Positions 5,788-45,028 are shown, counted from the first letter of the stretch. The stretch: 64,000 nt of DNA from an uncultured Bacilli bacterium (GCA_963931685.1 OZ007038.1:810940-874939); one strand, 5' to 3'. Numbers and translations are program-made. The notes: generated by a model not told the origin, from the sequence alone.

Positions 5788-5791
5788 TCTA

Positions 5792-7734: not shown

Positions 7735-7756
7735 TAATCTCTTCCTCCTTATCAAG

Positions 7757-13900: not shown

Positions 13901-14083
13901 AGCTAATTCTTCAGGATATTTTTTTATTAAAAATTTTAGTAATAATTCTTCCTCAATATTAGAATTATTTTCTCTATCTTCAAAATTACCAAGATAAGTA
14001 TATTTAAGTTTTTCTTCAAACACTTTGTGTAATAATCTATCTTGAGTTTTAATTTCTAATTCATTTACACTACCACTACTCAT
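10931..14083 (-). CDS. hsdR: type I restriction enzyme R subunit
   Basis: 1050 aa. Helicase motif I is HTQGSGKSLSMV and motif II is VFVDECHRTQ. It overlaps hsdS. Confidence 0.9.
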   Translation of the reverse strand: MSSGSVNELEIKTQDRLLHKVFEEKLKYTYLGNFEDRENNSNIEEELLLKFLIKKYPEELASKAIAELKKVAHNETKSLYEVNKEVYELLKYGKGITLYIGQKEEKVYFIDYEDFNNNDFYVAEEVTYRGQNEKRPDIVIYINGIAIGVIELKRSTVSINEGIRQNLDNQKPIFIERFFTTIQFIVAGNDSEGLKYATTLTPAKYYLPWIEDYKAIGKLHEKVNDLINKNELLIDQQIPSLFEKERLIDLLDNFIVFDGGIKKVPRYNQYFGVTNAREFALKHEGGIIWHTQGSGKSLSMVLIAKWILSHIDNSRVLIFTDRKELDKQIKDVFESTGERIHRATSSSDLLKSLNDYSNGRLICSLIHKVGSSVDEELDKNYSEYVKELTKYKNEEFSAKGDLFVFVDECHRTQAGLLHDEMKRLLPNATFFGFTGTPLMKKSKATTLEKFGKYIHTYKFDQAVKDGIVVDLCYESRNVEQRINNKAKIDEWFEAKTAGLNEYAKQKLKERWGNLQSITSSGSRLEEIVKDIIFDFEKIPRLEQNKGTAMLVASSIYEACRYWEIFQTKGFDKCAIISSYSPYVTDIKGEEDGEFTISDKQKIYEVYDKMWDKNKYPKLRSDNEHDDYTQCFEDDAIHKFINSPSEMKVLIVVDRLLTGFDAPSATYLYIDKKMQDHGLFQAICRVNRLDAGKDLGYIVDYKDLFENIEGAVENYTNGAFDNFDKEDITGLLKDRLKFCSDRLNNALKKIKSICEPIENPKGTLEFLHYFVAQDLDTISESREENLKNTESKRIEFYDAVSDLVIAYTNIADEMTKAGYSREEIQQIKSDVNYYNNARDEVMKSAGDYIELKNYDSSMRYMIDNYIGADTSELQYKLDEATLLDVIVASGLDKATEIMPKGFRKNKKAMALAIENNIASTIINNQNKNPRYYSKMSELLSELIELKKEQNLDYQAYLEKLIELVKKVKNPELSGHYPNSIHNTRLRGLYDILDSDENKTLDLYEFLINNVPKDFMDSKMKQKELKLSLLMQLDDEAKADEIFNLWKNTRGC

Positions 14084-20286: not shown

Positions 20287-20310
20287 TAAAAAATCTCCTC
20301 TCTGTTATAA

Positions 20311-20640
20311 TTATTTAAGTTTACCGAACTTATTATTTTCATTTTTCTTATTTAAAATTTTTTTACTATTTTCAGAATCTAACATTTCTTTAATTCTTTT
20401 CATTTCTCGATCTAATTTCTTTTGTATTCTTTTCTCTTCTTCCTGTTTATCATGAACAATAAAAGAGTACCAGTTATCAACATCATATACTTCTTGCATT
20501 CTTTTTAAAAGGTTATTATTTGGTATTTTAGTAAAGTTTTCAATTGATCTTAATTCTGATGTTTTTATGTTTAATAACTTTGCGGCTTCTGTAATAGAAA
20601 GACCTTTATTTACCCTAAATGCTTTAGGTGTTGCTTGCAT
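20311..20640 (-). CDS. Cro/XRE-like HTH regulator
   Basis: 109 aa with an HTH (LSITEAAKLLNIKTSELRSIEN). Divergent from the cI-like repressor. Confidence 0.65.
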   Translation of the reverse strand: MQATPKAFRVNKGLSITEAAKLLNIKTSELRSIENFTKIPNNNLLKRMQEVYDVDNWYSFIVHDKQEEEKRIQKKLDREMKRIKEMLDSENSKKILNKKNENNKFGKLK

Positions 20641-20749
20641 TGTATCCTCCTTTCTATTTTAATCATACACTTTTTATAATTGTTTGTAAGCGACCTTTTA
20701 TGCCCAATTCATTTTTTTCACTTTCCCTTCTATTATAAGAATACTACCT

Positions 20750-20825
20750 GATTACGAAAACGTAAATACAAATTACGATTTTTTTCATAATTTTACTTGT
20801 ATGTTTTCGTATTTTAAGTTATACT
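20750..20825. promoter_or_regulatory. divergent promoter/operator region with three TACGAAAAC-type repeats
   Basis: TTACGAAAACGTAA (20752-20765), ATTACGATTTT (20772-20782) and an inverted TGTTTTCGTATT (20812-20823) lie between the cro-like and cI-like genes. Confidence 0.45.
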
Positions 20826-20845
20826 TATTTTAGAGGAGGATGCCT

Positions 20846-21574
20846 ATGAAAAAGCAAGAAACATTTGCTGAAAAAGCAAGAAGACATGACTATTCAATTG
20901 AACAACATTTTGTTAATAACTTAAAGGCTATTATGGCTGAAAAGAAAATAACAAGGACTCAGCTTGCTAAAATGTTAGATATGCCATACACTACCCTTTG
21001 TGATTGGTGTAATGGAAGAATCTATCCTAAGTATGAAAAAATTGAAAAGATAGCTAATGTTTTAAAAGTTGATCCAAGTGAACTCGCAGGACTTGAATTA
21101 ACATCTAACAAAAATAGAGATGATGATTTATCTAATGAAGTTGCAAGAGTAAATGTTTTAAAATACCTTCCTTCAGATGCAAGTGTGAGAAAGCCACATC
21201 CTTCATTAGTTTGGTTTGAGACAAATATTGCACCAGAATTACTGCAAAATAATAGCTACTATTTTGGTTTAAAAGTAAATGACAATACTATGGCTCCTAA
21301 ACTATATAAAAACGATTGGGTAATATTCCGTCAAACAGACACAATAGATGATGATGGAATATATTGCCTAAGACATCCAGGTTGTGAAACAATTATAAGA
21401 AAAGTTGTCTTATTAAAGAATGGATTTTTAGTAATCCAAACTCATTCATCTTGGAAAGAAGGTAAAGATAAATCTAACTCACAATCTTATTCAATTAATG
21501 ATATTGGAAAAGAAATAGAAATACTTGGAAAAGCAATTAGATATTCTATTTCTGAACATGATAATGAATTATAA
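20846..21574 (+). CDS. cI/LexA-like repressor (N-terminal HTH + C-terminal S24 peptidase-like domain)
   Basis: HTH (ITRTQLAKMLDMPYTTLCDWCNG) plus an S24-like C-domain (FGLKVNDNTMAP...IIRKV). GGAGG lies 6 nt before ATG 20846. Confidence 0.75.
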   Translation: MKKQETFAEKARRHDYSIEQHFVNNLKAIMAEKKITRTQLAKMLDMPYTTLCDWCNGRIYPKYEKIEKIANVLKVDPSELAGLELTSNKNRDDDLSNEVARVNVLKYLPSDASVRKPHPSLVWFETNIAPELLQNNSYYFGLKVNDNTMAPKLYKNDWVIFRQTDTIDDDGIYCLRHPGCETIIRKVVLLKNGFLVIQTHSSWKEGKDKSNSQSYSINDIGKEIEILGKAIRYSISEHDNEL

Positions 21575-21726
21575 AAAAAGACCACTGCTGGAACAGTGAT
21601 CGAGTGAAAAATCCCTAATTTAAAGTTCGGTAAACTTAAATAATTATAACAAAGTATAATTTTGGAGATTTCTCGTATTTAATTATATCACCAATTAGGG
21701 ATTTCTACAAGAAAGTTGGTGAAATA

Positions 21727-22836
21727 ATGGCAGTTTACAAAGATCCTAAGCCTACTAAAAATGGTAGAGCTTGGTATTTTAAGTTTAGTTATAAGGATGC
21801 ATTTGGTGCTACTAAGCAATATAGATCAAAAAGATATTTAACTAAAAAGGAAGCAACTGATGCAGAAAGAATGTTTTTAGTTACCTCTACTGATAAAGTA
21901 GAAGATAACAATATGACGTTTAAGGATTTATATGATGAGTTTAGAATGCATAACGATGAAATAATGAAAGATACTACTAAGTATGGCTATGATAATAAAG
22001 AAAGGTTTATAGAATGCTTCTTCCCTGTTAAAGTGAAAGATTTTAATATTATGCAGTTTGAGCAATGGAAACGAGAAATAAATAAACTTAATATATCTCT
22101 TAGATATAAAAATGATATTTATAAATTTCTTAAATCCATTTTAAACTTTGGTGTTAAATGGCATAACTTAAACTTTCAAGCAGTATATAATAAAATGACA
22201 AAATTTCAAGATCCTAATGAGCGGAGAAAAGAAATGGCTTATTATACTTACGATGAGTTCAAAAATTTTATTTCTTATGAAGAAGACTTAAGATGGAGAT
22301 GTGTATTTGAAATATTATATTACTGTGGATTACGTAAAGGAGAATTAAAAGGTCTTACTTGGAAAGACATTTACTTTGATAAAAAAGTACTATCTGTCAA
22401 TAAACAAATAACACAACGAAATAACCGTGTTAAATTTGAATTTTCGGATACTAAGACAAGGGATAGTAGAAGAATAGTTCCTATTACTAAAGTCTTGTTA
22501 AATGACCTTAAAATGCTCTATGAGCAGGATAAAAAAGACTATTATGGATTTAATGATGATTTCTTTGTGGTTTCAGATGCTAAACCTATAGCTGATTCTA
22601 ATATATATCTTAGAAGAACTAAACTAGCTACACTTACAGGTTTAAAGATTATTAGAATTCATGATTTTAGACATTCATGTGCATCATTACTTATTAACAA
22701 TGGTGCTAATGTTACATTAGTTGCCAAATATTTAGGTCATACAAAAATCGAGGAAACCCTAAATACATATTCACATATGTTTAGTACTGCCCTCGACTCT
22801 GTGGTTTCTGTTATAGATAGCTTAGAAGATGACTAA
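21727..22836 (+). CDS. int: tyrosine-type site-specific integrase
   Basis: 369 aa with R...HDFRHSCASLL...LGHTKIEETLNTYSH (R-H-R-Y catalytic signature). Confidence 0.9.
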   Translation: MAVYKDPKPTKNGRAWYFKFSYKDAFGATKQYRSKRYLTKKEATDAERMFLVTSTDKVEDNNMTFKDLYDEFRMHNDEIMKDTTKYGYDNKERFIECFFPVKVKDFNIMQFEQWKREINKLNISLRYKNDIYKFLKSILNFGVKWHNLNFQAVYNKMTKFQDPNERRKEMAYYTYDEFKNFISYEEDLRWRCVFEILYYCGLRKGELKGLTWKDIYFDKKVLSVNKQITQRNNRVKFEFSDTKTRDSRRIVPITKVLLNDLKMLYEQDKKDYYGFNDDFFVVSDAKPIADSNIYLRRTKLATLTGLKIIRIHDFRHSCASLLINNGANVTLVAKYLGHTKIEETLNTYSHMFSTALDSVVSVIDSLEDD

Positions 22837-32119: not shown

Positions 32120-32956
32120 TTATTTGTTATTTTTAGGATATTTATTTTTCTTGGTGGCTTTTTTGCCTTTAAGTCTATCATTATTATAAAATTCTATCCA
32201 TTCTTTAACTAAGGTTATGTATTCTTCCAAAGATGTGATATTATAATTGTATAAAGTTTCCTTTTTAAGGAGAGAGTGCCAGCTCTCTATCGGTGAATCA
32301 TCTATAGGTGTGCCTTTTCTAGCCATAGATATTTGTATGCCATTAGACTCACAGATAGCTTTGTATTCATAAGATGTATATTGGAATCCTTGGTCACTAT
32401 GCAAGATTAATCCATGTACATCTTTTCTTTTTGATATAGCTTCATTTAAAGTGTCCATAACAAGTTTGTTATCATTATATTTAGATATTTTATAAGCGAC
32501 AACTTTTCTATCATATAAATCAATTATTGTAGATAAATAAGCTCTAGCTCCTTTATATATTAGATAAGTTACATCGGTATCCCATACTTTATTTGGCTTA
32601 TCAGTATTAAAGTTACGTTTTAACAAATCAGGTTTGACATTATCTTCTATCCTCTCATTTTTATTCTTTTTCTTTGCTCTCCTAATATAATTAGGCATTA
32701 AATTATATCTTTTCATTATTCTTAAAACCTTCTTTCCATTCATTATAACCCCATATTTTCTCTTTAGGCCTTCCACAATTCTACGATAGCCATATGTGCC
32801 TTTAGAATCATCAAATATTTCTTTAATAACTAAATAATCATAATAGTCAGAATCTTCCTTATTTCGATATTTATAATAAGTTTTTGGGCTTATTTCTAAT
32901 ACGGCACACATGTTATATAACTTATATTTATCCCTATATAAATTAATAAAAGTCAC
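32120..32956 (-). CDS. IS3 transposase OrfB (DDE/rve catalytic domain), expressed as an OrfAB fusion by -1 frameshift
   Basis: DDE residues lie in WDTDVTYL, LHSDQGFQYTS and ESWHSLLKKE. The -1 frame is open from the A7 run (32998) into orfB. Confidence 0.8.
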   Translation of the reverse strand: MTFINLYRDKYKLYNMCAVLEISPKTYYKYRNKEDSDYYDYLVIKEIFDDSKGTYGYRRIVEGLKRKYGVIMNGKKVLRIMKRYNLMPNYIRRAKKKNKNERIEDNVKPDLLKRNFNTDKPNKVWDTDVTYLIYKGARAYLSTIIDLYDRKVVAYKISKYNDNKLVMDTLNEAISKRKDVHGLILHSDQGFQYTSYEYKAICESNGIQISMARKGTPIDDSPIESWHSLLKKETLYNYNITSLEEYITLVKEWIEFYNNDRLKGKKATKKNKYPKNNK

Positions 32957-34199: not shown

Positions 34200-35522
34200 T
34201 TAAAAATAATTTTTGAGTAGTGCATTTAGTTCAACAGCATATTCCATTGGTAAATTTTCTCTAAATTCATCAATAAAACCAATTATCAATAATTCTTTTG
34301 CTCTTTCTTCATCTAATCCTCTACTCATTAGATAAAATAATTTTTCTTCATCTAGTTTTGATACTGTAGCTTCATGTTCTAGATATGAAGTTGAATTTTC
34401 AACGATGTTTTTTGGAATCGTGTCGCTTTTTGATTTATTATCTAATATTATTGTATCACATTTAATGGTACTTTGGGAATAAACTGCATCTTTACTAATT
34501 TTTACTGTTCCTCTATAGTTACTTATTCCACCACTTGCGGCTATTGATTTACTAATGATTTTACTTGTTGTATTAGGGGCCAAATGAATCATTTTAGCTC
34601 CAGCATCTTGAATTTGATTTTTTGATGCGACAGCAATAGATATACAATCTCCACTAGCTCCTTTTCCTTTTAAAATACATGATGGATATTTCATATTAGT
34701 TTTTGAACCAATATTACCATCAATCCATTCCATTTTACCATTTTCATCAACAATAGCTCTTTTAGTGACTAGATTATATATGTTACTAGCCCAATTTTGA
34801 ATGGTTGTATATCTACAGCTGGCGTTTTTTCCAACAAATATTTCAACAACAGCAGCATGGAGTGAACTAGAGGTATGATAAGTAGCTGTACATCCTTCCA
34901 TATAGTGAATATGACTATCATCATCTACTATTATTAATGTTCTTTCAAATTGTCCCATGTTTTTAGTGTTTAATCTAAAATAACTTTGAAGTGGTCTATC
35001 TATAGTAACACCTTTTGGAACATATATGAATGTTCCTCCACTCCATACAGCTCCATTTAAAGCTGTATATTTGTTTTCATCATATTTTACTAAGGTATTA
35101 AAATATTTTTTAAATAAATCTGGATGATTTTTTAATGCATCATCTGTACTACAGAAAATGACACCTTTTTCTTCTAATTCTTTTATCATACTGTGATATA
35201 CAACTTCACTTTCGAATTGAGCTCCAACACCATTTAGATATTTTTTTTCGGCGTTTATTAGTCCTACTTCTTCAAATGTGTCTTTAATAGGACAAGAGAC
35301 ATTATCCCAGTTATTTTCTACTTTATCTGTTACTTTTTTATAATAATTTATTTTATCAAAATCTATTTTTAATTCTGGTCCAAAGTTTGGATTTGGTGTT
35401 TCTTTAAATGCTTTATAGGCATTTAATCTGAAATCAGTCATCCACTTTGGCTCTTTTTTTATTTTTGATATTTCTTTTATTTTATTTTCGTCTAATCCAA
35501 GTTCTCTACTCATGACTGTCAC
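34200..35522 (-). CDS. sufB: Fe-S cluster assembly protein SufB
   Basis: 440 aa. The SufB/SufD beta-helix region shows typical strings (FERTLIIVDDDSHIHYMEGCTA, NWASNIYNLVTKRA, ..EHEATVSKLDEEKLFYLMSRGL..). Confidence 0.85.
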   Translation of the reverse strand: MTVMSRELGLDENKIKEISKIKKEPKWMTDFRLNAYKAFKETPNPNFGPELKIDFDKINYYKKVTDKVENNWDNVSCPIKDTFEEVGLINAEKKYLNGVGAQFESEVVYHSMIKELEEKGVIFCSTDDALKNHPDLFKKYFNTLVKYDENKYTALNGAVWSGGTFIYVPKGVTIDRPLQSYFRLNTKNMGQFERTLIIVDDDSHIHYMEGCTATYHTSSSLHAAVVEIFVGKNASCRYTTIQNWASNIYNLVTKRAIVDENGKMEWIDGNIGSKTNMKYPSCILKGKGASGDCISIAVASKNQIQDAGAKMIHLAPNTTSKIISKSIAASGGISNYRGTVKISKDAVYSQSTIKCDTIILDNKSKSDTIPKNIVENSTSYLEHEATVSKLDEEKLFYLMSRGLDEERAKELLIIGFIDEFRENLPMEYAVELNALLKNYF

Positions 35523-35565
35523 CTATTAACATTATACTAGATTTTAAGAAAAATAAAAAGGAATT

Positions 35566-36660
35566 TTAACTTTTAAATTTATAAAATAAGTGATAACAAT
35601 TACCTAATTTAAAATGACCTTTATAACTAGCTATTATATGTTCACCATTTTCTATTTTACCTTTCTCAATCAATTTCATTTTTTTCTTAAATCTTTTTTT
35701 CGTATTATTTCGAACTTTTAAAATAATTTTATCTTTAATATAAAACCTAAAGCCTATAAAATCTACTCCTTCTTTACTAACATTGATTATTTTTGTTTTA
35801 TCATTTAATCGTAAACCATAATCTAAAACAAATTTACTAATTTCATCTAAACAATATTTCAAATATTTTTTATCATACTCAAGTAATATCCCATCATCTT
35901 GATACCTTATATAATATTTAATATGTAATTTTTCTTTAATAAAATGATCCAAATCATTTAAAAAAAATATAGCTAATATTTGACTTACTACATTACCAAT
36001 ACCTAAACCTTTACCTTTTTCATATAATGGTATTCTATTTATTTCATCAATCCTTTTATTTTTATCATTTAAATTACTTTTTTTTAAATAATTAATCTCT
36101 TTTTCCTTTAATTTTAAAATTCTTTCATTCACATAATCTTCATCAGTCGAATCAATTATTTTGAATAATATATCTAAATATTTTTTATCCTTGATTTTCC
36201 TTTTTAACATTCTCTTTAAAACACCATGGTCTATATTATAGAAAAATTTACTAATATCAAATTTTAAAGCATATACCTCACCATTCATACTATTCAAATA
36301 CTTTTTTAAACACCTAATCCCATAACTAGTTCCTTTACCTTTTCTAGAAGCTACATTCGCACTTATTAAAGATGGTTCTAATACCTTAATTAAAATATCC
36401 GCCATTAAATGATTAATTATTTTATCATTAATATTTTGACTCATAATTATTCGATATTTTGGATCTTTAATCAAAAATATATTGTATTTACCAACTTTAT
36501 AATCATTAAGTAACCTAAAAACCTTACTTATATTAGAAGTATAATACTCTTCAAATTTATATATTTTGTTTTTATTCAAAGTGTTTTTTCTAACCACCTT
36601 ATAAGCTTTAATAATATTTTCTATAGTAAAATCATTTACTAAATTACCTACTCTTTTCAT
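35566..36660 (-). CDS. DGR reverse transcriptase
   Basis: RT motifs are present, including YIRYQDDGILL (YxDD) and the DGR-typical LGIGNVVSQ ([LIV]GxxxSQ). Preferred start is ATG 36660 (MKRVGNL). It lies next to Avd and TR. Confidence 0.85.
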   Translation of the reverse strand: MKRVGNLVNDFTIENIIKAYKVVRKNTLNKNKIYKFEEYYTSNISKVFRLLNDYKVGKYNIFLIKDPKYRIIMSQNINDKIINHLMADILIKVLEPSLISANVASRKGKGTSYGIRCLKKYLNSMNGEVYALKFDISKFFYNIDHGVLKRMLKRKIKDKKYLDILFKIIDSTDEDYVNERILKLKEKEINYLKKSNLNDKNKRIDEINRIPLYEKGKGLGIGNVVSQILAIFFLNDLDHFIKEKLHIKYYIRYQDDGILLEYDKKYLKYCLDEISKFVLDYGLRLNDKTKIINVSKEGVDFIGFRFYIKDKIILKVRNNTKKRFKKKMKLIEKGKIENGEHIIASYKGHFKLGNCYHLFYKFKS

Positions 36661-36988
36661 ACCTAATCCACCCATATAACTGCTTAATAATATTTAATAA
36701 AAATTTACCGATTTTCAAATATTTTTTATATGAAATATACTTTTTATCACAAGCTATTTTAAAATAAAAATCAATCATTTTAATTTTACTAATTATCCTC
36801 TTTTGATAAACAATTCTTTCTTTAACATCTAATAAATTACTAAAATAAATTAACTCTAAAACCTCATAATATGTATTAGATATCTTATCTTTTAAAACCT
36901 TTTCAGTCCTTGGAAAATTAACAATAATCTTATCCAAATAAAATATAGTTTTTTTAATATCATTTACAACCTCTAATTTTTCATACAT
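36644..36988 (-). CDS. avd: Avd-like accessory variability determinant (four-helix-bundle protein)
   Basis: 114 aa, helical and basic. It overlaps the RT start. Size and position are typical of DGR Avd. Confidence 0.65.
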   Translation of the reverse strand: MYEKLEVVNDIKKTIFYLDKIIVNFPRTEKVLKDKISNTYYEVLELIYFSNLLDVKERIVYQKRIISKIKMIDFYFKIACDKKYISYKKYLKIGKFLLNIIKQLYGWIRYEKSR

Positions 36989-37383
36989 ATTTTTTCAACA
37001 CTTTCTAAAATATTAAATATTTCTTCATTATATTTAATTTCATTTAATCTCTCATTTATAAACTTAATCCTGTCATTAATAGACAAATTATTTTTCAAAA
37101 ACAACTCATAATTTTTACTATTATAATAGGTAATCAAAGATACATCATTTTCATATACTAAATAACTTATTTTTAATTTATCTAAAGTCTCTAATACCTT
37201 ATTTAATGAACCAATAGGAAAACCAACCTTGATAGTATCACTAAATATACTTACCTTATAACCAAATATATTTTTAATAATATAACAGTCCTTACCTAAA
37301 ACATTATAAAAAATACCATTTTTCATAATTATAATAAATTTCTTCTTTTTATCTTTTAACTCAAAATATTTTTTTCTAAACAT
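36973..37383 (-). CDS. small MutS-domain-I-like protein (DGR accessory ORF)
   Basis: 136 aa from ATG 37383, with GGAGGG 4 nt upstream. FIIIMKNGIFYNVLGKDCYIIKNIFGYKV...VGFPIGSLNKVLETLDKLKISYLVYE parallels the MutS N-terminal pattern (GDFYE..DA......L...LT.......aGvP......yl..L...G..VAi.EQ). Confidence 0.5.
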   Translation of the reverse strand: MFRKKYFELKDKKKKFIIIMKNGIFYNVLGKDCYIIKNIFGYKVSIFSDTIKVGFPIGSLNKVLETLDKLKISYLVYENDVSLITYYNSKNYELFLKNNLSINDRIKFINERLNEIKYNEEIFNILESVEKICMKN

Positions 37384-37666
37384 ATTTCCCTCCAAATTTT
37401 ATATTGTTTGTGACCAAGTGATTTTGACATAAGAAAAAGCAATACCAAAAATTTTAGTATTGCTTAAAATGCAGTCTAATCATAATATATCTTTTTCGTG
37501 AGTTCCACCATTTATAATTTCCTACATAGTATAATTATAAATCTTTCCTACTAAAGTTATATACTTTCTGCACCAATATTCGGATATATCATCCAGGGAT
37601 AATACTTGTTTTCTAAATCTTTTCTTTATGACTATATTAGTTCATAAACCTTAGTTTTATAGAAAT

Positions 37667-37754
37667 CTGGGCGGGGAGCATTATTAGAACTATTATAGGC
37701 GTTATTGTTGTTCACATTCGCATTCGAACTATTCACATAACCGTTCCAAACCCC
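37667..37754 (-). repeat. DGR template repeat (TR), 3' portion in coding sense (88 nt)
   Basis: Aligns to VR 39582-39669 with 18 mismatches, all at plus-strand T (coding-strand A). It starts with the GC-rich CTGGGCGGGGAGC block shared with VR. Confidence 0.9.
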
Positions 37755-39305
37755 CTCACTTACGGACAGTTTTTAAAATGAAATTAATTAGAGGTATTAG
37801 TCGTTTATTGACTAATACCTCTTATTTGCCCTTTTTATGCTATTTTTTCACTATATAGATTTTGTAACTCACTTCTGTTAAAATATTTATAATAAACCCA
37901 TAATAGAAAGAAGTGAGTTACATGTCTAAATTATATAATACTCAAAAAGATATTACAAGTAATTTTGAAGATTTTTTGAAAAATGCTGTCCCTAATATTA
38001 GAAAAACCCAACTTAATATTATTCCTTCCATTTTATTTGGTATTATTCAAGCTGAATCTATTGCTTCTTCTGATATCGCCAAAAACTTAAAAGATAATTT
38101 TTTAGATGTTAAACTTGATTCTGTTATTAAAAGAATTAATCGTTTCTTTCGTAACAAATTATTTGACCCTTATACCTTTTATAAACAAATTATTTCTTAC
38201 TCTCTTTCTACTTATAAAAAGAAACATTCTGACAAAAGAGTTCACATTATTTTTGACCACATGTTTTCTCACGAAAATTATACTACTCTTATGTTTACTA
38301 TGCGTTTAGGTTCTCAAGGCATCCCAATTTGGTTTAAATGTTTTAAAGGTGTTTCTGATAATGATGCCTTCATGATTGATACTATATTACAAGGCATTAA
38401 AGAAGTAAGTGATATGTTCTCTAACTATGATTTCGATCTTATTTTTCTAGCTGACCGTTGGTTTAATTCTTGTGATATTCTTAATTATATTGATTCTTTA
38501 GGTCACACTTACTGTATCAGACTTAAAAAGACTTTATATGTCTATTATTTCGATAAAAAAGAAGGTCACATTATCAGAAAAACTGCAGGTGAATTATTTC
38601 ATTACAAACATCTTTCTACTACTTATAACAACATTACCATAACAAAAAACAAACTTAATTGTAATATTGTTATAAGTGATTCTAAAGATACTGATGATCC
38701 TTGGATTATTGCCACTAATGGTGATTATAAAAGAGCCATTAAAGATTATTCTTATAGATTTGGTGCCATTGAATGTGTTTTTAAAAATCAAAAATCTAAT
38801 GGTTTTTATTTAGAAAAAATTACTACTGCCTCTTTAAAAGCTTTTACTTCTATGTTTTGTTTAGTATGCGTTTGTGTTTTATTTTTAACTTTATTAGGCG
38901 CATATTATTCACGTAATCGTAGTTCTTATAAAAAAGAAAATATTACTACTCATAAAAATTATATTATTAATGGAAAAAAATACAAAAGAAGAATTTTATC
39001 CCTATTTAATACTGGGCTCACATTATTCAAGCGAGCCTTTAATTCACATCACTATGTCACAATTTCTTATAAATTTATTTTATATGATATTTAAATTAAA
39101 TTAAATTTTTTTCTTTATATTCACTATTGTTTTTATCATGCCATTTTTATGGCAATTAATTTACAAATTTAGCCAAATTTTTAAAATTTACTATTTGTTA
39201 TTTTTTAAGCATCAAAAATAGACTAAAATGTACATCACTGGGCGTACTTTTTAGTCTATTTTTCCTTGTATTTGCTTGCCTTTTTTAAAACTGTCCGTCA
39301 TTCAG
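37755..39305 (+). mobile_element. IS4-like insertion sequence (1551 bp) inserted in the DGR TR
   Basis: Imperfect terminal IRs CTCACTTACGGACAGTTTT / AAAACTGTCCGTCATTCAG. The 8-bp duplication is CAAACCCC (37747-37754 and 39306-39313), and VR contains that octamer only once. Confidence 0.8.
37913..39094 (+). CDS. DDE transposase, IS4-superfamily-like
   Basis: 393 aa with ..IIFDHMF.., ..FLADRWF.. and YSYRFGAIECVFKNQKSNGF (a near Y-R-E-K signature). Family assignment is tentative. Confidence 0.6.
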   Translation: MSYMSKLYNTQKDITSNFEDFLKNAVPNIRKTQLNIIPSILFGIIQAESIASSDIAKNLKDNFLDVKLDSVIKRINRFFRNKLFDPYTFYKQIISYSLSTYKKKHSDKRVHIIFDHMFSHENYTTLMFTMRLGSQGIPIWFKCFKGVSDNDAFMIDTILQGIKEVSDMFSNYDFDLIFLADRWFNSCDILNYIDSLGHTYCIRLKKTLYVYYFDKKEGHIIRKTAGELFHYKHLSTTYNNITITKNKLNCNIVISDSKDTDDPWIIATNGDYKRAIKDYSYRFGAIECVFKNQKSNGFYLEKITTASLKAFTSMFCLVCVCVLFLTLLGAYYSRNRSSYKKENITTHKNYIINGKKYKRRILSLFNTGLTLFKRAFNSHHYVTISYKFILYDI

Positions 39306-39313
39306 CAAACCCC

Positions 39314-39348
39314 ATTAGAATTGCCACCAGACTCGTTAGAATAAGCAT
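39314..39348 (-). repeat. DGR template repeat (TR), 5' portion in coding sense (35 nt)
   Basis: Aligns to VR 39670-39704 with 4 mismatches, all at plus-strand T (coding-strand A). Homology ends at 39348/39704. Confidence 0.85.
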
Positions 39349-39510
39349 CTCCACTTATCAATATTACCCCTTATTTTGTTCTATAATCACCCCGCTCTTC
39401 ACTTGCCATAGGCACATGAAGAGCGTTTATTAGGACTCAGTTTGCCTAGCAAACTGGTCCTTTTATAAAGGCTTCGCCTTTACTAATTTGTTCTTATTAT
39501 TGTGTATTTA

Positions 39511-40917
39511 TTACACTATTGTAAATGGATCTTCTGAAGTTCCACTTCCGTTCAAAGTAATATCAGATTTCAAAAAGACAACTGGGCGGGGAGCAGCAGT
39601 AGAACTATAAGAGGCGTCAGAGCTGTACACATACGCAGACGAACTACCCACACAACCGCCCCAAACCCCATAAGAAGAGCCACCAGACTCGTAAGAATAA
39701 GCATTTATTGTCCAATATAATAATGAACTAGCACTTCCTTTATCTAATAAGTAATTACTATTACATTCATTGGAACCATTAGCTGAAGTTGTGGCTGATG
39801 TACACTTTGGATTAGTACTTGCTCTTAAGATGTCTGATACATTAACTAATCCCACATTCCCTGTCCATGTATACATTTTTTCTCCTGCTATGTTTTTTTC
39901 TATACTATCCGCTCCACTTTCATCCAATTCTTCTACAGCTCCTATATTAAATGAATGAGAAGTCATTTGTCCTTTAGCTGTACTATTTAAATTATTTACA
40001 TAATAATCTTCATTTAAATATATTTTTATACTTGAATCTTCGGTTACTGTTCCACTTTGTGATCCGCTAGGTGAAGAGAATGTTCCATCAACTGCTGCAT
40101 ATACTCCACACCCTCTTGATGGATCATCACAATATGAGTTATTTTCTGTACTTCGGTGATTTGATGAATCAAATGGTCTCCTTGCTAGAACATCATTCTT
40201 AATTATTTTATATGTTCCATCGGTTTCTTTGGCTATGATTCTCCATAATTCATCATTGAATTCTATATAATTATTTGGTTTTTTTCCTCTATATATTAAT
40301 CTTCCACTTTCATAACTATCTTCATATAAGCCATCTCCTGATTCTACTATTTCGACTTCTTGGCCTCCTATTGTTTGGTCTCCTCCTGGTGTTATTCCTC
40401 CAGTTCCATCTTTTTGTTTATAATTTAAGGTTACTGTTATTGTTGAACTTGTGTTTTCTGGCTGACTAGTTACACTACTATCATAACTTACGATTACGGT
40501 TAAAATATCACTTTGAGATACTTGTAATTCATCTCCGTTTTCTATTCCACTTGTTTGGAATGTAATTGCTGGATTATTTCCATCATTTACTTCTATACTT
40601 TCTAATACTGCATCAATATTACCTTGATTTTCTACAGTTATATCATATTTCATTGAATCTCCTGGTAAAACTAAGTTGGTTTTAAATGTGGCAGTTGTAT
40701 CTGTATGTGTTGGCGCTTCTGCATCACTTGCCCCTCCACTTTGAACTGTGCTTTGTATATCAGTTATTTTAACTAAAAAGTTACTTGCTATATTTGATGT
40801 TCCTGATATTTTTAATTGTGATTGAAATGCTGCATACCCTACTCCCATTATTACTAATATCATACATAATCCGGCTATTATATAATTCCTATTAGTTCTA
40901 TTTAATCTTTTATTCAT
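39511..40917 (-). CDS. DGR target protein: secreted/anchored protein with a hypervariable C-terminal region
   Basis: 468 aa with an N-terminal hydrophobic signal/anchor (IIAGLCMILVIMGVGYAAF) and Ser/Thr/Gly-rich domains. VR lies 24-64 codons from the stop. Confidence 0.8.
   Translation of the reverse strand: MNKRLNRTNRNYIIAGLCMILVIMGVGYAAFQSQLKISGTSNIASNFLVKITDIQSTVQSGGASDAEAPTHTDTTATFKTNLVLPGDSMKYDITVENQGNIDAVLESIEVNDGNNPAITFQTSGIENGDELQVSQSDILTVIVSYDSSVTSQPENTSSTITVTLNYKQKDGTGGITPGGDQTIGGQEVEIVESGDGLYEDSYESGRLIYRGKKPNNYIEFNDELWRIIAKETDGTYKIIKNDVLARRPFDSSNHRSTENNSYCDDPSRGCGVYAAVDGTFSSPSGSQSGTVTEDSSIKIYLNEDYYVNNLNSTAKGQMTSHSFNIGAVEELDESGADSIEKNIAGEKMYTWTGNVGLVNVSDILRASTNPKCTSATTSANGSNECNSNYLLDKGSASSLLYWTINAYSYESGGSSYGVWGGCVGSSSAYVYSSDASYSSTAAPRPVVFLKSDITLNGSGTSEDPFTIV
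39582..39704 (-). repeat. DGR variable repeat (VR) in the 3' end of the target gene
   Basis: 123 nt encoding NAYSYESGGSSYGVWGGCVGSSSAYVYSSDASYSSTAAPRP. Its 3' end (coding sense) is the GC-rich IMH-like GCTCCCCGCCCAG. Confidence 0.9.
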
Positions 40918-41141
40918 ATGTACTTCCTCCTATTTTTATTATGAATCATTAATATTTTTTTATTCATTAATCTAATTATAAAATATTTTTAAATATTTAA
41001 CAACAGTAATTATTTTCCACTTTACACCTATACACTCTCCTTTTATAATAATTAGATATCTTTTTTTGATATCTTCCTTATTTTGATTATAAAACATATT
41101 TAATTAATTAAGCAATACTTTTTCTTATGTTCTATGTATAT

Positions 41142-41235
41142 TATACCTTTTACGCCCATAAATATTTTACACTTATTATGTATAAATCTTTTATAAACAA
41201 AGGCTTTTCAAACTTTTATAATCGTAAAATATTTT
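41142..41235 (+). repeat. RIT left terminal inverted repeat
   Basis: ATACCTTTTACGCCCATAAATATTTTACACTTATTATGTATAAATC...CGTAAAATATTTT. Its reverse complement matches 44148-44241 with scattered mismatches. Confidence 0.8.
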
Positions 41236-41282
41236 TTTGTTTGATATGATTATTTTGTGAAATTATAAAGGAGGTTGATAAA

Positions 41283-42224
41283 ATGATTTCACAAAATAAT
41301 AAACGGAAACACATCAAAAAATATGTGTTTTCAGGAACTTTACTAGAAGAATATCTGGCTTATACAAGATATTTAGAGGAACTTGAGATTACTAAGGATA
41401 CAATGAAATGGAGGTTAAAACATATCAGAGGCTTTTTAGATTATTTAGATAAACATAATATAGTTATTAATAATATCTTGCCAAATGTTGTATATGATTA
41501 TATGATGTCAATCGATGATTTAAGCGTACGTACAAAAGAACATAGAGCTGTTTGTATTAGACTTTTCTTAAATTGGTTATTTAATAATAAAAAGATTGAA
41601 ACAAGCGGAACTCATATTTTACCGAAAATAAAAAACAACAAACAAGATAAAGTGGCTGCCTATTACTCCAATGAAGAAGTGTCTAAAATATTAAATTCTA
41701 TAAACATACATGACGTTAATGGAAAGAGAGATTTAGCTATTATGTTGTTATTCGTGAGATTTGGTTTAAGAGAACGTGATGTCCAACAACTTAAATTGGA
41801 AAATATTAAATGGAATGACAATAAAATTATAATAGTTCAAAGTAAGAATAAACAAATTAATACTTATCCAATGATACCTGAAATTAAATATGCTTTAATT
41901 GATTATTTAAAAAATGAACGTCCTATTTCTAATTTACCATATCTATTTTTAACCGATTCTAAAAATATATGTACTAGTCATTTTTTTTATAAATTAGTAA
42001 ACAAGTATTTTAGGAAAGCAGAAATAAATACAAGTTACAAAAAACACGGTTCACATTCTTTAAGACATAGTTTGGCTACTTCGTTACTTAATGATGGCAA
42101 TTCACTTTATACTATTTCATCTATTCTTGGTCATAAATATATTGCTGATTCTCAAGTCTATACTAAAGTAGATATTGAAAATTTAAAAAAAATACCTTTG
42201 GAAGTGCCTCTATGGAAAGCTTAA
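41283..42224 (+). CDS. ritA: tyrosine recombinase RitA-like
   Basis: 313 aa with RERD..HSLRHSLATSLL..LGHKYIADSQVYTKV. An AGGAGG RBS precedes it. Confidence 0.75.
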   Translation: MISQNNKRKHIKKYVFSGTLLEEYLAYTRYLEELEITKDTMKWRLKHIRGFLDYLDKHNIVINNILPNVVYDYMMSIDDLSVRTKEHRAVCIRLFLNWLFNNKKIETSGTHILPKIKNNKQDKVAAYYSNEEVSKILNSINIHDVNGKRDLAIMLLFVRFGLRERDVQQLKLENIKWNDNKIIIVQSKNKQINTYPMIPEIKYALIDYLKNERPISNLPYLFLTDSKNICTSHFFYKLVNKYFRKAEINTSYKKHGSHSLRHSLATSLLNDGNSLYTISSILGHKYIADSQVYTKVDIENLKKIPLEVPLWKA

Positions 42225-43126
42225 AAGGTCCCTTCAAAGATATTATTCCACAATTCCAAAACTATAAAAAAAGTCTTGGATATTTATATGATAACATATC
42301 TTCTTTTGTACAGTTAGATAATTTTTTATATAATCAGGGTATTTATGACTTTAATGATACAAAAATTATCTTTGAAGTTTTAATTAAAAATGAGCCAAAT
42401 TTGTCTAAGAAAACAAATAGATATACTTGTTTACAACAGTTATACGAATTTATGGAACTATTAGGATATCACAATCTTTATTTTGAAAATATACAATTTG
42501 ATAAAAAACCAAATTTTATTCCTAGAATTTTAAATGCAAAAGAAATTACTTTATTTTTAAAAAAAATAGACCAATTAAGTATTTTGTTAGATAATGATGA
42601 ACAATATATTTATCCAACTTTATTTAGATTATTATATAGTTCGGGATTGAGAATTAATGAAGCTTTAAAACTTAAGATTACTGATATATCTTTAAAAGAT
42701 GGTACAATAACAATTGTTAAGGGTAAAGGTAATATTGCTAGATTAATACCTTTATCTCCAACCATGAAATGTACACTAACTAATTATTTAAAAATAGTTA
42801 ATTGTAAAACTTATCTATTTGAAATTAATAATAAACCAATTACATATATAAAAGTTGCTGATTTCTTTCATAAAATTACAAATAAAATGTTTGACTTTAG
42901 AATACATGATTTACGTCATACTTTTGCTGTTACTGTATTTAATAATTTATATAAAAAAGGGTTGTCTGAATATCAAATACTTTATTTACTTCACATATAT
43001 ATGGGTCATACAAATATTAAAAGTACAGAATATTATCTACGAATGACAGATGAAACTTACAATAGAATTATAAATAATTTTCATAATAAATATCCAAATG
43101 TTATTCCTAAGGTGGGTGAGATGTAA
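42212..43126 (+). CDS. ritB: tyrosine recombinase RitB-like
   Basis: 304 aa with GLRINEAL..HDLRHTFAVTVF..MGHTNIKSTEYYLRM. It overlaps ritA by 13 nt. Confidence 0.75.
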   Translation: MESLKGPFKDIIPQFQNYKKSLGYLYDNISSFVQLDNFLYNQGIYDFNDTKIIFEVLIKNEPNLSKKTNRYTCLQQLYEFMELLGYHNLYFENIQFDKKPNFIPRILNAKEITLFLKKIDQLSILLDNDEQYIYPTLFRLLYSSGLRINEALKLKITDISLKDGTITIVKGKGNIARLIPLSPTMKCTLTNYLKIVNCKTYLFEINNKPITYIKVADFFHKITNKMFDFRIHDLRHTFAVTVFNNLYKKGLSEYQILYLLHIYMGHTNIKSTEYYLRMTDETYNRIINNFHNKYPNVIPKVGEM

Positions 43127-43127
43127 G

Positions 43128-44129
43128 ATGTTAATGAATTTCTCATATTATATTAAAAAATATTTTACTTCTTATCTTCCAGTTACACGAAATTTAAATT
43201 CTTCTACAATTAGAACTTATAAAAATGATATGCTATGTTTTATTAAATATTTAATAGAAATTAATATAAACGTTGATGAGCTACAATTAAAAGACATAAG
43301 TTTTTCATTTATAGAAAATTATATAAAATTTTTAAAAGATGAAAAAAACAATGGGGCTAAAACTATTAATTTAAAACTCACCATATTAAAATCCTTCTTT
43401 TCATATTTAAGTCTTGAAACTGTAGATGCAATTGATGTTTGTGAAATGGTCAGAAAAATTAAGTTATTAAAACCTGAAGTTACTATTCCTAGTTATTTAA
43501 CAGCCAAAGAAATAGAATGTTTATTAATACAACCAATTAAGTTAAACAATATAAAAGAATTAGCTATTTTAACTCTACTTTATGATGGTGCTTTAAGAGT
43601 TAGTGAATTATGTAATTTAAAAGTAGAAAATATTACTTTGGATAGTATTTCTAAAATTAATGTAGTTAAAAGTAAAAATAACAACTTTAGAATTATTCCC
43701 CTTAATAAGCAAACCACTAAAATATTAAAAAAATATATTGATGAATATAATTTAAACAATAACGATTTTTTATTTACTAATAAATATGGTAAAAAATATA
43801 CCCAAAAAGGAATAGCTTATATTTTAAATAAAAATTATAATTTAGCTAAAAAATATTGTAATGATAATACAATGTATAATTATAAGAGTCATCCTCATAT
43901 GTTAAGGCATAGTAAAGCAATACATTTATTAGAAAGTGGAATTGATTTAATAACTATTAGAGATTTTTTAGGACATAAACATGTAAGTACAACAGAAATA
44001 TATGCGCGTATCACTGATGAAAAGAAAGCAGAAATTTTATTAAAAAACACGAAAAAAAAGCCATTAAAACTCAAACGAAGAAAAAAACAAAGAGAAAATT
44101 TAGAAAGTTGGTTAAGAGAAAACTATTAA
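43128..44129 (+). CDS. ritC: tyrosine recombinase RitC-like
   Basis: ALRVSEL..HMLRHSKAIHLL..LGHKHVSTTEIYARI. Preferred start is ATG 43128, one nt after the ritB stop and behind GGTGGGTGAG. Confidence 0.75.
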   Translation: MLMNFSYYIKKYFTSYLPVTRNLNSSTIRTYKNDMLCFIKYLIEININVDELQLKDISFSFIENYIKFLKDEKNNGAKTINLKLTILKSFFSYLSLETVDAIDVCEMVRKIKLLKPEVTIPSYLTAKEIECLLIQPIKLNNIKELAILTLLYDGALRVSELCNLKVENITLDSISKINVVKSKNNNFRIIPLNKQTTKILKKYIDEYNLNNNDFLFTNKYGKKYTQKGIAYILNKNYNLAKKYCNDNTMYNYKSHPHMLRHSKAIHLLESGIDLITIRDFLGHKHVSTTEIYARITDEKKAEILLKNTKKKPLKLKRRKKQRENLESWLRENY

Positions 44130-44147
44130 GTTTTTTCTCTTTTTTTC

Positions 44148-44241
44148 AAAATATTTTACGATTATAAAAGTTTGAAAAGTCCTTATTTATAAAGGATTTA
44201 TGCAAAATAAGTGTAAAATATTTATGGGCGTAAAAGGTATA
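44148..44241 (-). repeat. RIT right terminal inverted repeat
   Basis: AAAATATTTTACGATTATAAAAGTTTGAAAAG...GTGTAAAATATTTATGGGCGTAAAAGGTAT, the inverted partner of 41142-41235. Confidence 0.8.
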
Positions 44242-44435: not shown

Positions 44436-45028
44436 AACTCCCCGCAGCAAGCTACGGGGTATCTTTTTGTGCGATGTCTTTAAAAGACATATATAATTGC
44501 TTATACTCAGTATCTTGTTTACCTTGATTTTTTACATACTCTCTAATTACTGTTTCATTTTGATTTTTGCCTACCGTTGCCACAAAATATCCGTCTGTCC
44601 AAAACTGTCCTCCCCATAGTTTTTTCTTTACCTCTGGGCATTCTGAAAAAATTTGTCTTGCAGTTATACTTTTTATTATTTTTACTATTTGACTTGGAGA
44701 ATAATTTGGAGTGCTTTGTACTAAAAAATGTACATGTTCTTTATCTGTTCCTATCTCCAAAAAACTTATGTAATCATATCTTAATTCTATTCCAAGACAA
44801 ATTTGTTTCAGATGTTCATCTACTGTTTCTTCAAAAACAACACGAAGGTATTTTGCTGGACATACTATATGGTAAACAAGATTACTTGCATTATGGGATA
44901 AATAAATATATTTGCTTTCTTCCATGACATCGCCCTCACTACGTATTATCATACTACGTTCGGCTTTACGCTGCAAGCAGCGGGGAAATGCCCTAGAGTT
45001 TAGGCATACACTGTATGCCTAAACTTAT
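44436..45028 (-). mobile_element. IS200-type element (tnpA only); boundaries approximate
   Basis: A Y1 HUH transposase gene is flanked by hairpins: CCCCG-N10-CGGGG (44440-44459) at the 3' end, and an 11-bp perfect stem GTTTAGGCATA/TATGCCTAAAC (44998-45024) upstream. Confidence 0.65.
44452..44925 (-). CDS. tnpA: IS200/IS605-family Y1 transposase TnpA
   Basis: HVHFLVQSTPNYSPSQIVKIIKS (HUH motif) and ..WTDGYFVATVG.. (catalytic Tyr region). Preferred start is ATG 44925 (MEESKY). Confidence 0.85.
   Translation of the reverse strand: MEESKYIYLSHNASNLVYHIVCPAKYLRVVFEETVDEHLKQICLGIELRYDYISFLEIGTDKEHVHFLVQSTPNYSPSQIVKIIKSITARQIFSECPEVKKKLWGGQFWTDGYFVATVGKNQNETVIREYVKNQGKQDTEYKQLYMSFKDIAQKDTP

Follow-up and report, generated by a model that had tools for sequence, protein, structure and literature searches.

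The diversity-generating retroelement (DGR) of Bordetella phage BPP-1 (mtd-avd-TR-brt) is the mechanistic prototype of these elements. Cis-primed reverse transcription in Bordetella needs approximately 20 nt upstream of the template copy (TR), which pair with positions 59-70 of the spacer (Sp59-70; 10.1101/2023.10.23.563531). One of the accessory genes described for DGRs is MSL, which codes for a MutS domain I-like protein and co-occurs with avd (Wu et al., PMC5758913). In Thiohalocapsa PB-PSB1, parts of DGRs have been broken up or removed by insertion sequences, and related strains differ in having an intact or a degraded locus (Dore et al. 2024, PNAS; PMC10907252).

The locus described here is part of a stretch of 64,000 nucleotides, the whole of which is referred to as the window, and is almost certainly a DGR. 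The host, an uncultured gut member of Bacilli, has a small, low-GC genome. Read along the minus strand, the element consists of the target gene with the variable copy (VR), TR, spacer, MSL, avd and RT (Table 1), and the MSL-avd-RT layout is of a known kind, Architecture D of Wu et al. 2018. The element is best described as a chromosomal DGR of the MSL-avd-RT type in which the TR has been split by a presumably recent insertion sequence (IS), so that the element is probably disabled and the VR probably frozen; we give this reading a probability of about 0.85. The initial annotation called the DGR complete. No part is missing and none of the ORFs, RT, avd and MSL included, is broken, but the IS cuts the TR into two separate pieces.

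Table 1. Features of the DGR locus (positions counted from the first nucleotide of the window)
Feature	Position	Strand	Size	Evidence or remarks
DGR reverse transcriptase (RT)	35566-36675	-	369 aa	motifs LGIGNVVSQ and YQDD
avd (accessory variability determinant)	36644-36988	-	114 aa	Pfam bAvd and NCBIfam DivGenRetAVD
MSL accessory gene (MutS domain I-like)	36973-37383	-	136 aa from ATG (140 aa from upstream TTG)	Pfam MutS_I
Spacer (Sp) between TR and MSL	37396-37666	-	271 nt	duplex strand, stem-loop and terminator-like hairpin
Terminator-like hairpin in spacer	37437-37465	-		predicted
Short stem-loop directly after spacer duplex strand	37582-37594	-		predicted
Spacer strand of predicted duplex, Sp 61-72	37595-37606	-		predicted pairing
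TR, 3' part	37667-37754	-	88 nt	gap-free match to VR; includes IMH*-like GC block 37667-37679
Target-site duplication CAAACCCC, first copy, belongs to TR	37747-37754	.		direct sequence match
IS4-like insertion sequence	37755-39305	+	1551 bp	imperfect terminal inverted repeats CTCACTTACGGACAGTTTTTAAAA / CTGAATGACGGACAGTTTTAAAA
Transposase gene of IS	37922-39094	+	390 aa	DDE_Tnp_1 and NF033591 matches, both sub-threshold
Target-site duplication CAAACCCC, second copy	39306-39313	.		direct sequence match
TR, 5' part	39314-39348	-	35 nt	gap-free match to VR; cut off from remaining TR by IS
Upstream strand of predicted duplex with spacer, AGGGGUAAUAUU, -23 to -12 from TR start	39360-39371	-	12 bp	predicted pairing
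Target (variable protein) gene	39511-40917	-	468 aa	ORF; VR = aa 405-446
IMH-like GC-rich block at VR 3' end	39582-39594	-		coding sense GCTCCCCGCCCAG; flank diverges from TR flank right after
VR	39582-39704	-	123 nt	gap-free TR alignment; 22 differences, all at TR adenines

The TR was rebuilt by joining its two parts after removal of the IS and one copy of the 8-bp duplication. The resulting 123 nt align to the VR without gaps and with 22 mismatches (18 in the 3' part and 4 in the 5' part). All 22 are a T in the TR on the plus strand, i.e. an A on the coding (minus) strand, and are replaced on the plus strand by C (8), A (8) or G (6). Adenine occupies 36 of the 123 TR positions, and the probability that all 22 mismatches fall on adenine is (36/123)^22 = 1.8e-12. 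Both copies end in the block CTGGGCGGGGAGC (coding sense GCTCCCCGCCCAG) and diverge after it, with ATTTCT in the TR and TTGTCT in the VR; the next 6 nt are unlike at 3 positions, and beyond them the similarity stops. In DGRs, divergence behind a shared GC-rich end is what gives the transfer its directionality. The 3' end of the VR is located 23 codons ahead of the target-gene stop codon. A search for a hairpin downstream of the VR gave nothing convincing (z = -1.2). The initial annotation had reported this pair with the same counts, mismatches at template adenines only and an IMH-like shared GC-rich end, and had attributed the differences to adenine-directed mutagenic retrohoming; re-alignment and tabulation by TR base agree on each of these points. 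With all differences at adenines, the element has rewritten its VR in the past. The mismatches are a record of past diversification, not of present activity.

An intact sister element with an adjacent VR was found in the uncultured Bacilli BRZ_T bin41 (L006), with 23 of 25 TR/VR mismatches at A. Two further sister elements are in Firmicutes bacterium CAG:822-like genomes (L008 and L038). Compared with the window, the RT of these elements is 85-93 % identical, the TRs are 85-90 % identical and the spacer is near-identical, with the MSL-avd-RT order unchanged. The TR of all three is contiguous across the position of the IS junction, whereas that of the window is split, and the joined sequence is therefore regarded as the real ancestral TR. 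The IS-TR junction itself is the same in the independent short-read contigs L001, L004 and L005. An identical GC-rich block is found in the TR/VR pairs of L006 and in the remote family copies L110 and L111.

Reverse transcriptases of the DGR clade have an IGxxxSQ motif where those of group II introns and retrons have QGxxxSP, and a catalytic YxDD. The RT ORF of the window matches Pfam RVT_1 and contains LGIGNVVSQ and IRYQDDGILL. Among solved structures it comes closest to Bordetella phage bRT, 8ub7, with E 8e-31 as compared with 1e-10 for group II RTs, and LGIGNVVSQ and YQDD align to I181-Q187 and D215/D216 of bRT. The structure 8ub7 was taken to be the Bordetella bRT because I181/Q187 and D215/D216 fit the numbering in the preprint 10.1101/2023.10.23.563531. 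Among the NCBIfam models, group II RT TIGR04416 gave 97 bits (cut-off 300) and Drt3a 37 (cut-off 200), while the PADLOC matches were to generic RT or weakly to DRT. No group II intron or retron RNA was detected in an Rfam scan of 35000-41500. Adenine-specific TR/VR pairs were found upstream of the RT at more than 60 loci, which had been retrieved by RT homology alone; homologues of the RT are nearly always accompanied by such a pair. Judged from sequence, the RT would belong with the DGR RTs rather than those of retrons, Abi/DRT systems or group II introns, and the comparisons support this affiliation, for which a check had been proposed initially.

The avd product matches bAvd (E 2.9e-8) and DivGenRetAVD (E 3.9e-12), both over the full profile length, and is basic (pI 9.7); Avd proteins are small, basic four-helix bundles. 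Because neither score reaches its curated cut-off (34.6 against 40 for bAvd and 46.4 against 80 for DivGenRetAVD), it is regarded as a divergent Avd. The MSL product matches MutS_I at aa 6-71, and its 24.7 bits exceed the gathering cut-off, which is 20.6. An HRDC domain was not matched in any ORF of the cassette. The three ORFs downstream of the TR are thus what they had been described as from the sequence, MutS-I-like, Avd-like and RT.

The target protein is acidic (pI 4.4) and has an N-terminal hydrophobic/signal segment, an Ig-like domain (aa ~49-168, assigned from a weak Pfam match) and a C-terminal domain of ~280 aa that bears the VR. The variable positions are close to the C-terminal end of what would be a secreted or surface protein. 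In DGRs the VR is typically, though not by strict definition, displayed on a C-type-lectin-like or Ig-like ligand-binding fold. AF2 modelled aa 49-168 with confidence, and no other part. The C-terminal domain had pLDDT below 50 in two AF2 runs, and gave no match in a Foldseek search of the PDB with its model or in a profile-versus-PDB sequence search. Pfam returned DUF6273 only (E 0.81; E 0.0018 in some family members), and of more than 1700 homologues none had a Pfam domain. Paralogues of the target family are scattered through these genomes.

The TR contains 14 variable AAY codons, besides the invariant boundary codon N405, and a stop codon cannot be reached by mutation from any of its A-containing codons. 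Among 117 full-length target-protein homologues, mean entropy reached 3.31 bits for the 14 AAY-templated codons, compared with 0.75 for the 21 codons that lack A and 0.67 outside the VR. The AAY-templated positions are hypervariable across the family, and variation in the VR is concentrated where the adenine pattern had led the initial annotation to look for it. For the target protein itself only one VR allele is on record, on 6 contigs; since these may be separate assemblies of the same or related samples, they say little in favour of a frozen VR. The closest other proteins have 37-50 differences outside the VR as well, and therefore represent other strains or paralogues.

By analogy with the Bordetella phage, RT and Avd would bind a non-coding RNA that starts with a short stretch upstream of the TR and continues through the TR into the spacer. 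Synthesis of cDNA would be cis-primed from the spacer, the TR being copied with random misincorporation opposite adenines, and the cDNA would take the place of the VR, with the GC-rich IMH at the VR 3' end as guide. Such rewriting could reach up to 36 positions in 22 codons, which corresponds to about 5e20 protein variants with no stop codon creatable. The IS has since entered the TR and parts its first 35 nt and the upstream strand from the remainder. This presumably recent insertion has probably disabled or severely crippled retrohoming, and the present VR would be frozen as a result.

The predicted 12-bp duplex between the upstream strand and Sp 61-72 has an energy of -15.3 kcal/mol. Helices of 12 bp or more within the same positional window arose in 3 of 2000 shuffles, and the duplex energy was equalled by 2.5 % of shuffles. 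The helix, with the stem-loop that follows it, is kept in L006, L008 and L038 with a single change, G to A in L006, that turns G.U into A-U; the predicted duplex rests on this one single-sided substitution. A weaker alternative pairing of the upstream segment is with Sp 219-233. The helix is a candidate analogue of the 'cPRT Stop' duplex of Bordetella.

The IS has the features of a mobile element: imperfect terminal repeats of ~23 nt, 8-bp duplications at three sites and copies that are 94-99.9 % identical. Its transposase scored 21.2 bits with Pfam DDE_Tnp_1 (cut-off 23) and 77 bits (E 1e-21) with the NCBIfam IS4 model NF033591 (cut-off 152). The insertion point is between TR nt 35 and 36, and the two parts of the TR are 1559 bp apart (IS plus duplication). 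Its boundaries and 8-bp duplication are those initially claimed, and a second copy, L036, which is at an unrelated locus, has identical ends and is flanked by a separate 8-bp duplication. Because this copy is 99.9 % identical, the insertion in the TR is considered recent.

The IS places 1.56 kb between the two strands of the predicted helix. The contiguous template unit of upstream segment, TR and spacer, present in the sister loci, is broken here; this loss bears on present function, not on ancestry. Because the TR is split, normal cDNA synthesis should be prevented if the Bordetella system is a guide, and the DGR is probably inactive at present. That it is still fully or partly active despite the IS is unlikely. 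The 88 nt of the TR 3' part, the IMH* and the spacer would then act as cis-priming RNA, transcribed by read-through or from an outward promoter in the IS end, and cDNAs entering the IS would be resolved through homology within the VR, so that the 3' two-thirds of the VR would still be diversified. The intact RT, avd and MSL ORFs speak for this, and since the sequence from the TR 3' 88 nt and the IMH*-like block through the spacer and its terminator-like hairpin is still contiguous, rewriting of the VR 3' part by truncated cDNAs is conceivable in principle. The proportion of adenines changed, 18/27 in the 3' part and 4/9 in the 5' part, is compatible with it, the difference not being significant. 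Both the division by the IS of the predicted helix equivalent to that of Bordetella and the single recorded VR allele argue against continued activity.

Copies of the IS have also struck the cassette in sister lineages. In L037 a copy of 94 % identity, with its own 8-bp duplication, is inserted 4 nt before the stop codon of a paralogue and keeps the exact C-terminus (TIV*). In L008 and L038 the IS, full or truncated, borders the TR on its upstream side, where the former target gene ended, at a site identical to that of L037, 4 nt before the target-family stop codon; L038 has lost the target gene. Three positions in or beside the cassette family, together with the preserved C-terminus in L037, could suggest a recurrent, possibly selected off-switch that inserts preferentially in the VR-TR cassette and thereby fixes a VR of advantage, reversible by excision or recombination. 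This is improbable: the target duplications differ (CAAACCCC, ACAATAGT and AAAATAAT) and the near-identical copy in L036 is at an unrelated locus, leaving no evident sequence specificity, mainly DGR loci were examined so that the association is open to ascertainment bias, L038 has ended up without its target gene, which amounts to decay, and transposon-mediated degradation of DGRs is already documented (PMC10907252). The wider proposal that the IS4-like element is a recurrent modulator of the DGR family, either a switch freezing a selected VR or the cause of a truncated template mutagenising only the 3' 88 nt of the VR, is rather doubtful; if true, the locus would be a natural experiment on the RNA elements needed by a non-Bordetella DGR.

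An ordinary duplicated fragment or pseudogene remnant of the target 3' end beside an unrelated retron, defence or group II RT, which the dispersed paralogues and the secondary RT matches to group II and DRT models might suggest, has next to no probability. It is refuted by the confinement of 22/22 differences to adenines of one copy (P about 2e-12), the lead of bRT by 20 orders of magnitude and the consistent linkage of RT homologues to adenine-specific repeats; the stop-proof A-containing codons, group II and DRT matches far under their cut-offs and the negative Rfam scan also speak against it.

A DGR split and probably disabled by an IS can be compared with known systems. With the BPP-1 DGR it shares the adenine-specific transfer from TR to VR, a VR at the 3' end of a gene for a surface or receptor-binding protein, the GC-rich IMH that ends VR and TR, and Avd with an RT carrying IGxxxSQ and YxDD motifs. 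The spacer is downstream of the TR in both, and the predicted pairing of the TR-upstream segment with spacer nt ~60-70 resembles avd369-379:Sp59-70. BPP-1 is phage-borne, whereas this element is chromosomal: the window carries housekeeping genes and no close viral relative was found, viral matches having at most 36 % identity. The gene order is target-TR-MSL-avd-RT instead of target-avd-TR-RT, the spacer has 271 nt instead of 140 nt, and unlike BPP-1 the element has an extra MutS-I-like accessory gene and an IS-split TR.

The Architecture D DGRs (Wu et al. 2018, NAR 46:11), which include the Legionella DGR, likewise have a small MutS-like ORF with avd, without HRDC, on the RT strand. The MSL of the window has 136 aa, the reported range being 112-283 aa (PMC5758913), and is basic with a pI of 9.3, compared with a reported mean of 7.2 +/- 1.7 (PMC5758913). 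The element differs from these DGRs in its host, an uncultured low-GC gut member of Bacilli, and in its interrupted TR. The coexistence of intact and degraded variants in Thiohalocapsa PB-PSB1 has a parallel here in the window, the intact L006 and L038 with its lost target. The interruptions reported for Thiohalocapsa are located in the RT gene or involve MITE arrays, whereas in the window the IS lies within the TR and all protein-coding genes are intact.

The two parts of the template repeat (TR), 37667-37754 and 39314-39348 on the plus strand, make 123 nt when joined and align without gaps to 39582-39704, the variable region (VR) of the target gene. The initial annotation had described a 123-nt pair differing only at template adenines, and this is exact to the base. 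All 22 of the 22 mismatches are a T in the TR plus strand (A on the coding, minus strand), replaced in the VR by C (8), A (8) or G (6). Adenines make up 36 of the 123 TR positions, and the chance of all 22 differences falling on A is about 1.8e-12. The GC-rich, IMH-like common end that had also been proposed is found as the coding-sense block GCTCCCCGCCCAG, which closes the 3' end of both copies and beyond which the flanks diverge. The pair carries the mutational footprint of adenine-directed copying. The coding capacity of the TR is about 5e20 protein variants, and stop codons cannot be reached by mutation from any A-containing TR codon. No further TR/VR-like copy was found within the window. 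BPP-1 has a hairpin/cruciform downstream of the VR, whereas none is supported by folding in this diversity-generating retroelement (DGR) (39500-39600, minus strand, folded as DNA; z = -1.2).

Features of the DGR and of the insertion sequence (IS) within its TR
Feature	Position	Strand	Description
RT	35566-36675	-	RVT_1 match; motifs LGIGNVVSQ and YQDD
avd	36644-36988	-	full-length Pfam bAvd (E 3e-8) and NCBIfam DivGenRetAVD (E 4e-12) matches, below curated cut-offs
MSL	36973-37383	-	Pfam MutS domain I, above gathering threshold
IS	37755-39305 (1551 bp)		imperfect terminal inverted repeats (CTCACTTACGGACAG ... CTGTCCGTCATTCAG); 8-bp duplication CAAACCCC on both sides
Target gene	39511-40917	-	468 aa, acidic; N-terminal hydrophobic segment

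Among all solved structures, 8ub7 chain A is nearest to the RT (E 8e-31), and group II intron RTs come second (1e-10). The 8ub7 chain is taken to be bRT of the Bordetella phage, as I181, Q187 and D215/D216 in the alignment fit the residue numbering of bRT in the cryo-EM preprint 10.1101/2023.10.23.563531. Scores against the NCBIfam group II RT and Drt3a models were far under the cut-offs, and PADLOC gave only generic RT or weak DRT matches. Rfam found no group II intron or retron RNA in 35000-41500; its sole match there was miRNA-like, on an IS hairpin, and was judged spurious. A simple self-BLAST detector was run on 109 loci, nearly all of them retrieved as RT homologues (identity as low as about 30 %), and in over 60 it found adenine-specific direct repeats immediately upstream of the RT. 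Such repeats beside RT homologues are the strongest support, short of a tree, for a probable place of the RT in the DGR clade. They agree with the two motifs and the top solved relative in upholding the DGR-type RT first proposed.

The Avd-like and MutS-I-like ORFs were likewise recovered by profile searches, the Avd-like one below curated cut-offs. Neither Avd nor MSL had a significant match among PDB sequences. Avd is basic (pI 9.7), as is the MSL (pI 9.3), in contrast to the near-neutral MSL proteins (pI 7.2 +/- 1.7) of Wu et al. (PMC5758913). In contig L002 the MSL was called at 90 aa only, which may be a frameshift or low-coverage error. MutS-like MSL proteins are a class of DGR accessory protein that always occurs with avd and defines Architecture D (Wu et al. 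2018, PMC5758913), and the gene set is of a known DGR type because MSL and avd together fit that architecture. Judged by sequence-level tests of membership, the element is an Architecture D DGR. It is no new kind of system, and for a specialist the DGR call is routine.

The target protein has an Ig-like domain at aa 49-168, modelled with confidence, and a C-terminal domain of about 280 aa that holds the VR at aa 405-446. The fold of the VR-bearing domain stayed below pLDDT 50 in AF2, both for the full target with 68 homologues and for the C-terminal 283 aa with a two-family alignment; Foldseek against the PDB gave no usable solved relative, and profile search of PDB sequences gave none. The target family has more than 1700 homologues, none of them with a Pfam domain. 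Among 117 full-length homologues of at least 70 % identity, mean column entropy was 3.31 bits at the 14 AAY-templated codons and 2.03 bits at six further codons whose first or second base is A, compared with 0.75 bits at the 21 VR codons without A and 0.67 bits in the remainder of the protein. A check suggested in the initial annotation, that VR variation be limited to adenine-templated positions, thus gave a positive result at the family level.

The nearest target homologues (P0002, P0009 and P0010) were considered as alleles and rejected, being dispersed copies in other genomes. Their loci (L110, L111 and L112; 86-88 % identity) are at three different chromosomal positions with no DGR nearby. 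Two of the three examined, L110 and L111, have the exact IMH block and mostly adenine differences from TRs of the window type, which suggests that dispersed target copies may be trans-targets of multi-target DGRs. A paralogue in the window's own genome, P0018 at locus L037, is 84 % identical to the target and about 122 kb away; it was rejected as a current second VR because, compared with the window TR, it has indels, differs at about 21 non-A positions and has an imperfect IMH. A segment of about 150 nt with three GC-rich stem-loops (39373-39522) runs from the last codons and stop of the target into the downstream region and is 98 % identical to L037:8950-9100, compared with 87 % for the genes themselves. 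The L037 segment is not followed by a TR. The shared segment may be a conserved functional element or a result of recent gene conversion.

The IS that had been proposed to lie between the two TR parts was confirmed by its ends and duplication, and by a TR contiguous across the junction in three of three related loci retrieved by RT homology. These are L008 (Firmicutes bacterium CAG:822; RT 93 % identical), L038 (a human-gut contig; 93 %) and L006 (an uncultured Bacilli MAG; 85 %). Because these loci have the TR in one piece, the IS entered a pre-existing TR in the window lineage. Its product is a DDE transposase of 390 aa with the NCBIfam IS4 model as top family (E 1e-21, under the curated cut-off). 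At L036, an unrelated locus that is probably part of the same genome, lies a copy of 99.9 % identity that shares both ends and has a separate 8-bp duplication, AAAATAAT; a copy in L037 is 94 % identical. The insertion is recent, as indicated by this near-identity to another copy and by the intact RT, avd and MSL ORFs. An assembly artefact is dismissed because three independent short-read contigs with identical RT (L001, L004 and L005) start inside the same IS-TR junction. Another contig (L034) shares 5.9 kb with the window at 100 % identity and thereby assigns it to a long-read metagenome assembly with contigs of up to 1.3-1.5 Mb. No sequence from the same strain with the TR uninterrupted or with another VR was found, L001, L004 and L005 all starting inside the IS.

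By homology with the Bordetella system, RT-Avd would bind an RNA in which a short upstream segment precedes the TR and the spacer. The spacer would prime cDNA synthesis in cis, adenines would be copied unfaithfully, and the cDNA would supplant the VR, guided by the IMH. For the Bordetella phage, the preprint 10.1101/2023.10.23.563531 reports an essential stretch of about 20 nt upstream of the TR; its pairing with spacer nt 59-70 gives the 'cPRT Stop' duplex, and a short stem-loop comes next. In the IS-free reconstruction, a helix of 12 consecutive pairs is predicted between positions -23 to -12 (AGGGGUAAUAUU, 39360-39371) and spacer nt 61-72 (AGUAUUAUCCCU, 37595-37606), with a stem-loop (37582-37594) directly after the spacer strand. 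The helix is kept in L006, L008 and L038, where the sole substitution, G to A in L006, changes a G.U to an A-U pair. Of 2000 shuffles, 3 gave a helix as long as this (at least 12 bp) within that positional window, and the duplex energy was reached by 2.5 % of shuffles. An alternative helix to spacer nt 219-233 is longer, G.U-rich and energetically weaker, and competes with a strong local hairpin (37437-37465). The helix to spacer nt 61-72 is energetically the better and positionally rare, and its support is modest. This local hairpin, just before the MSL gene, resembles an intrinsic terminator, which would fit a discrete TR-spacer transcript.

With the IS in place, the strands of the predicted helix are 1.56 kb apart and the first 35 nt of the template are cut off, and for these reasons the DGR is judged to be probably disabled at present, with a probability of roughly 0.7. 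A single VR allele of the target protein is on record, on six contigs from assemblies that are perhaps not independent, and this is weakly consistent with a frozen VR. Some residual activity from the 3' 88 nt of the TR could in principle persist. The complete DGR of the initial annotation therefore stands for the protein genes, all of which are intact, and not for the template RNA, which is cut by the IS.

The IS is also found in sister cassettes. In L037 (7410-8949) it interrupts the paralogue 4 nt ahead of the stop codon, with the duplication ACAATAGT, and recreates the same C-terminus, TIV-stop; L110 is the empty-site orthologue of this locus. The same IS end is found at the identical site (ACTATAGT), just upstream of an intact TR, in L008 (~400-700) and L038 (3651-3715). 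In L038 the IS is cut down to about 65 nt, and the adjacent target gene is considered lost because this remnant is joined to an unrelated gene. The IS has remodelled the cassette on at least three occasions. The common site in L037, L008 and L038 may be a hot spot for insertion, or may stem from inheritance of one event or from gene conversion. A site preference is not claimed, since the target duplications have no motif in common, one copy (L036) is at an unrelated site, and sampling was biased to DGR loci. Degradation of DGR loci by transposons has been documented (PMC10907252; also PMC7517822).

For a genome of about 1.5 Mb (GC about 27 %), the neighbourhood has many mobile elements. Three consecutive, overlapping tyrosine-recombinase genes (41283-42224, 42212-43126 and 43098-44129, plus strand) are flanked by 94-nt inverted repeats, 94 % complementary (41142-41235 / 44148-44241). 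The layout of this element (41142-44241), which lies directly upstream of the promoter region of the target gene, is the one known from 'recombinase in trio' (RIT) elements. An IS200-like Y1 transposase (44452-44976, minus strand; E 8e-35) and an IS3-like rve/HTH_21 transposase (32120-32956, minus strand) flank the region. A gene for an HTH/S24 (LexA- or CI-like) repressor (20840-21574) lies between 32-nt inverted repeats, 97 % complementary (20300-20331 / 21623-21654), and a tyrosine integrase with an Arm-binding domain (21727-22836) is found just past the second arm; 20300-22836 may mark the border of an integrated element. A type I restriction-modification system (10931-17656, minus strand) comprises HsdR (1050 aa) and HsdM (797 aa), with a 397-aa ORF between them that is presumably HsdS. 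Two minus-strand ORFs, both without a Pfam match, contain tandem repeats: a 24-nt repeat in five to seven copies (7547-7714) encoding a Gly/Pro/Tyr-rich peptide repeat in ORF 7435-7767, and a 111-nt duplication, 90 % identical (4493-4714), in ORF 4129-5817.

To our knowledge, no prokaryotic system other than the DGR hypermutates proteins in a targeted way, and the gut microbiome has a particularly high density of DGRs. A literature search on DGRs in RF39-type Bacilli found no papers. The element adds a well-resolved Architecture D (MSL-avd-RT) DGR from poorly studied, small-genome gut Bacilli, whose target belongs to a large, unannotated and uncharacterised multi-copy family of surface proteins. 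It is also a natural dissection, in which the protein genes are intact and the template RNA is cut into the upstream element with the TR 5' end and the TR 3' end with the spacer, while sister genomes have the uncut version. VR heterogeneity with and without the IS would test the need for the upstream RNA segment in retrohoming outside the Bordetella phage, and a comparison of IS-split and intact populations would reveal how fast a DGR target becomes fixed after loss of the template. The DGR differs from the Bordetella prototype in its gene order, an extra MSL gene, a longer spacer and a chromosomal setting, and from its own sister elements in that the TR is split in the window DGR only.
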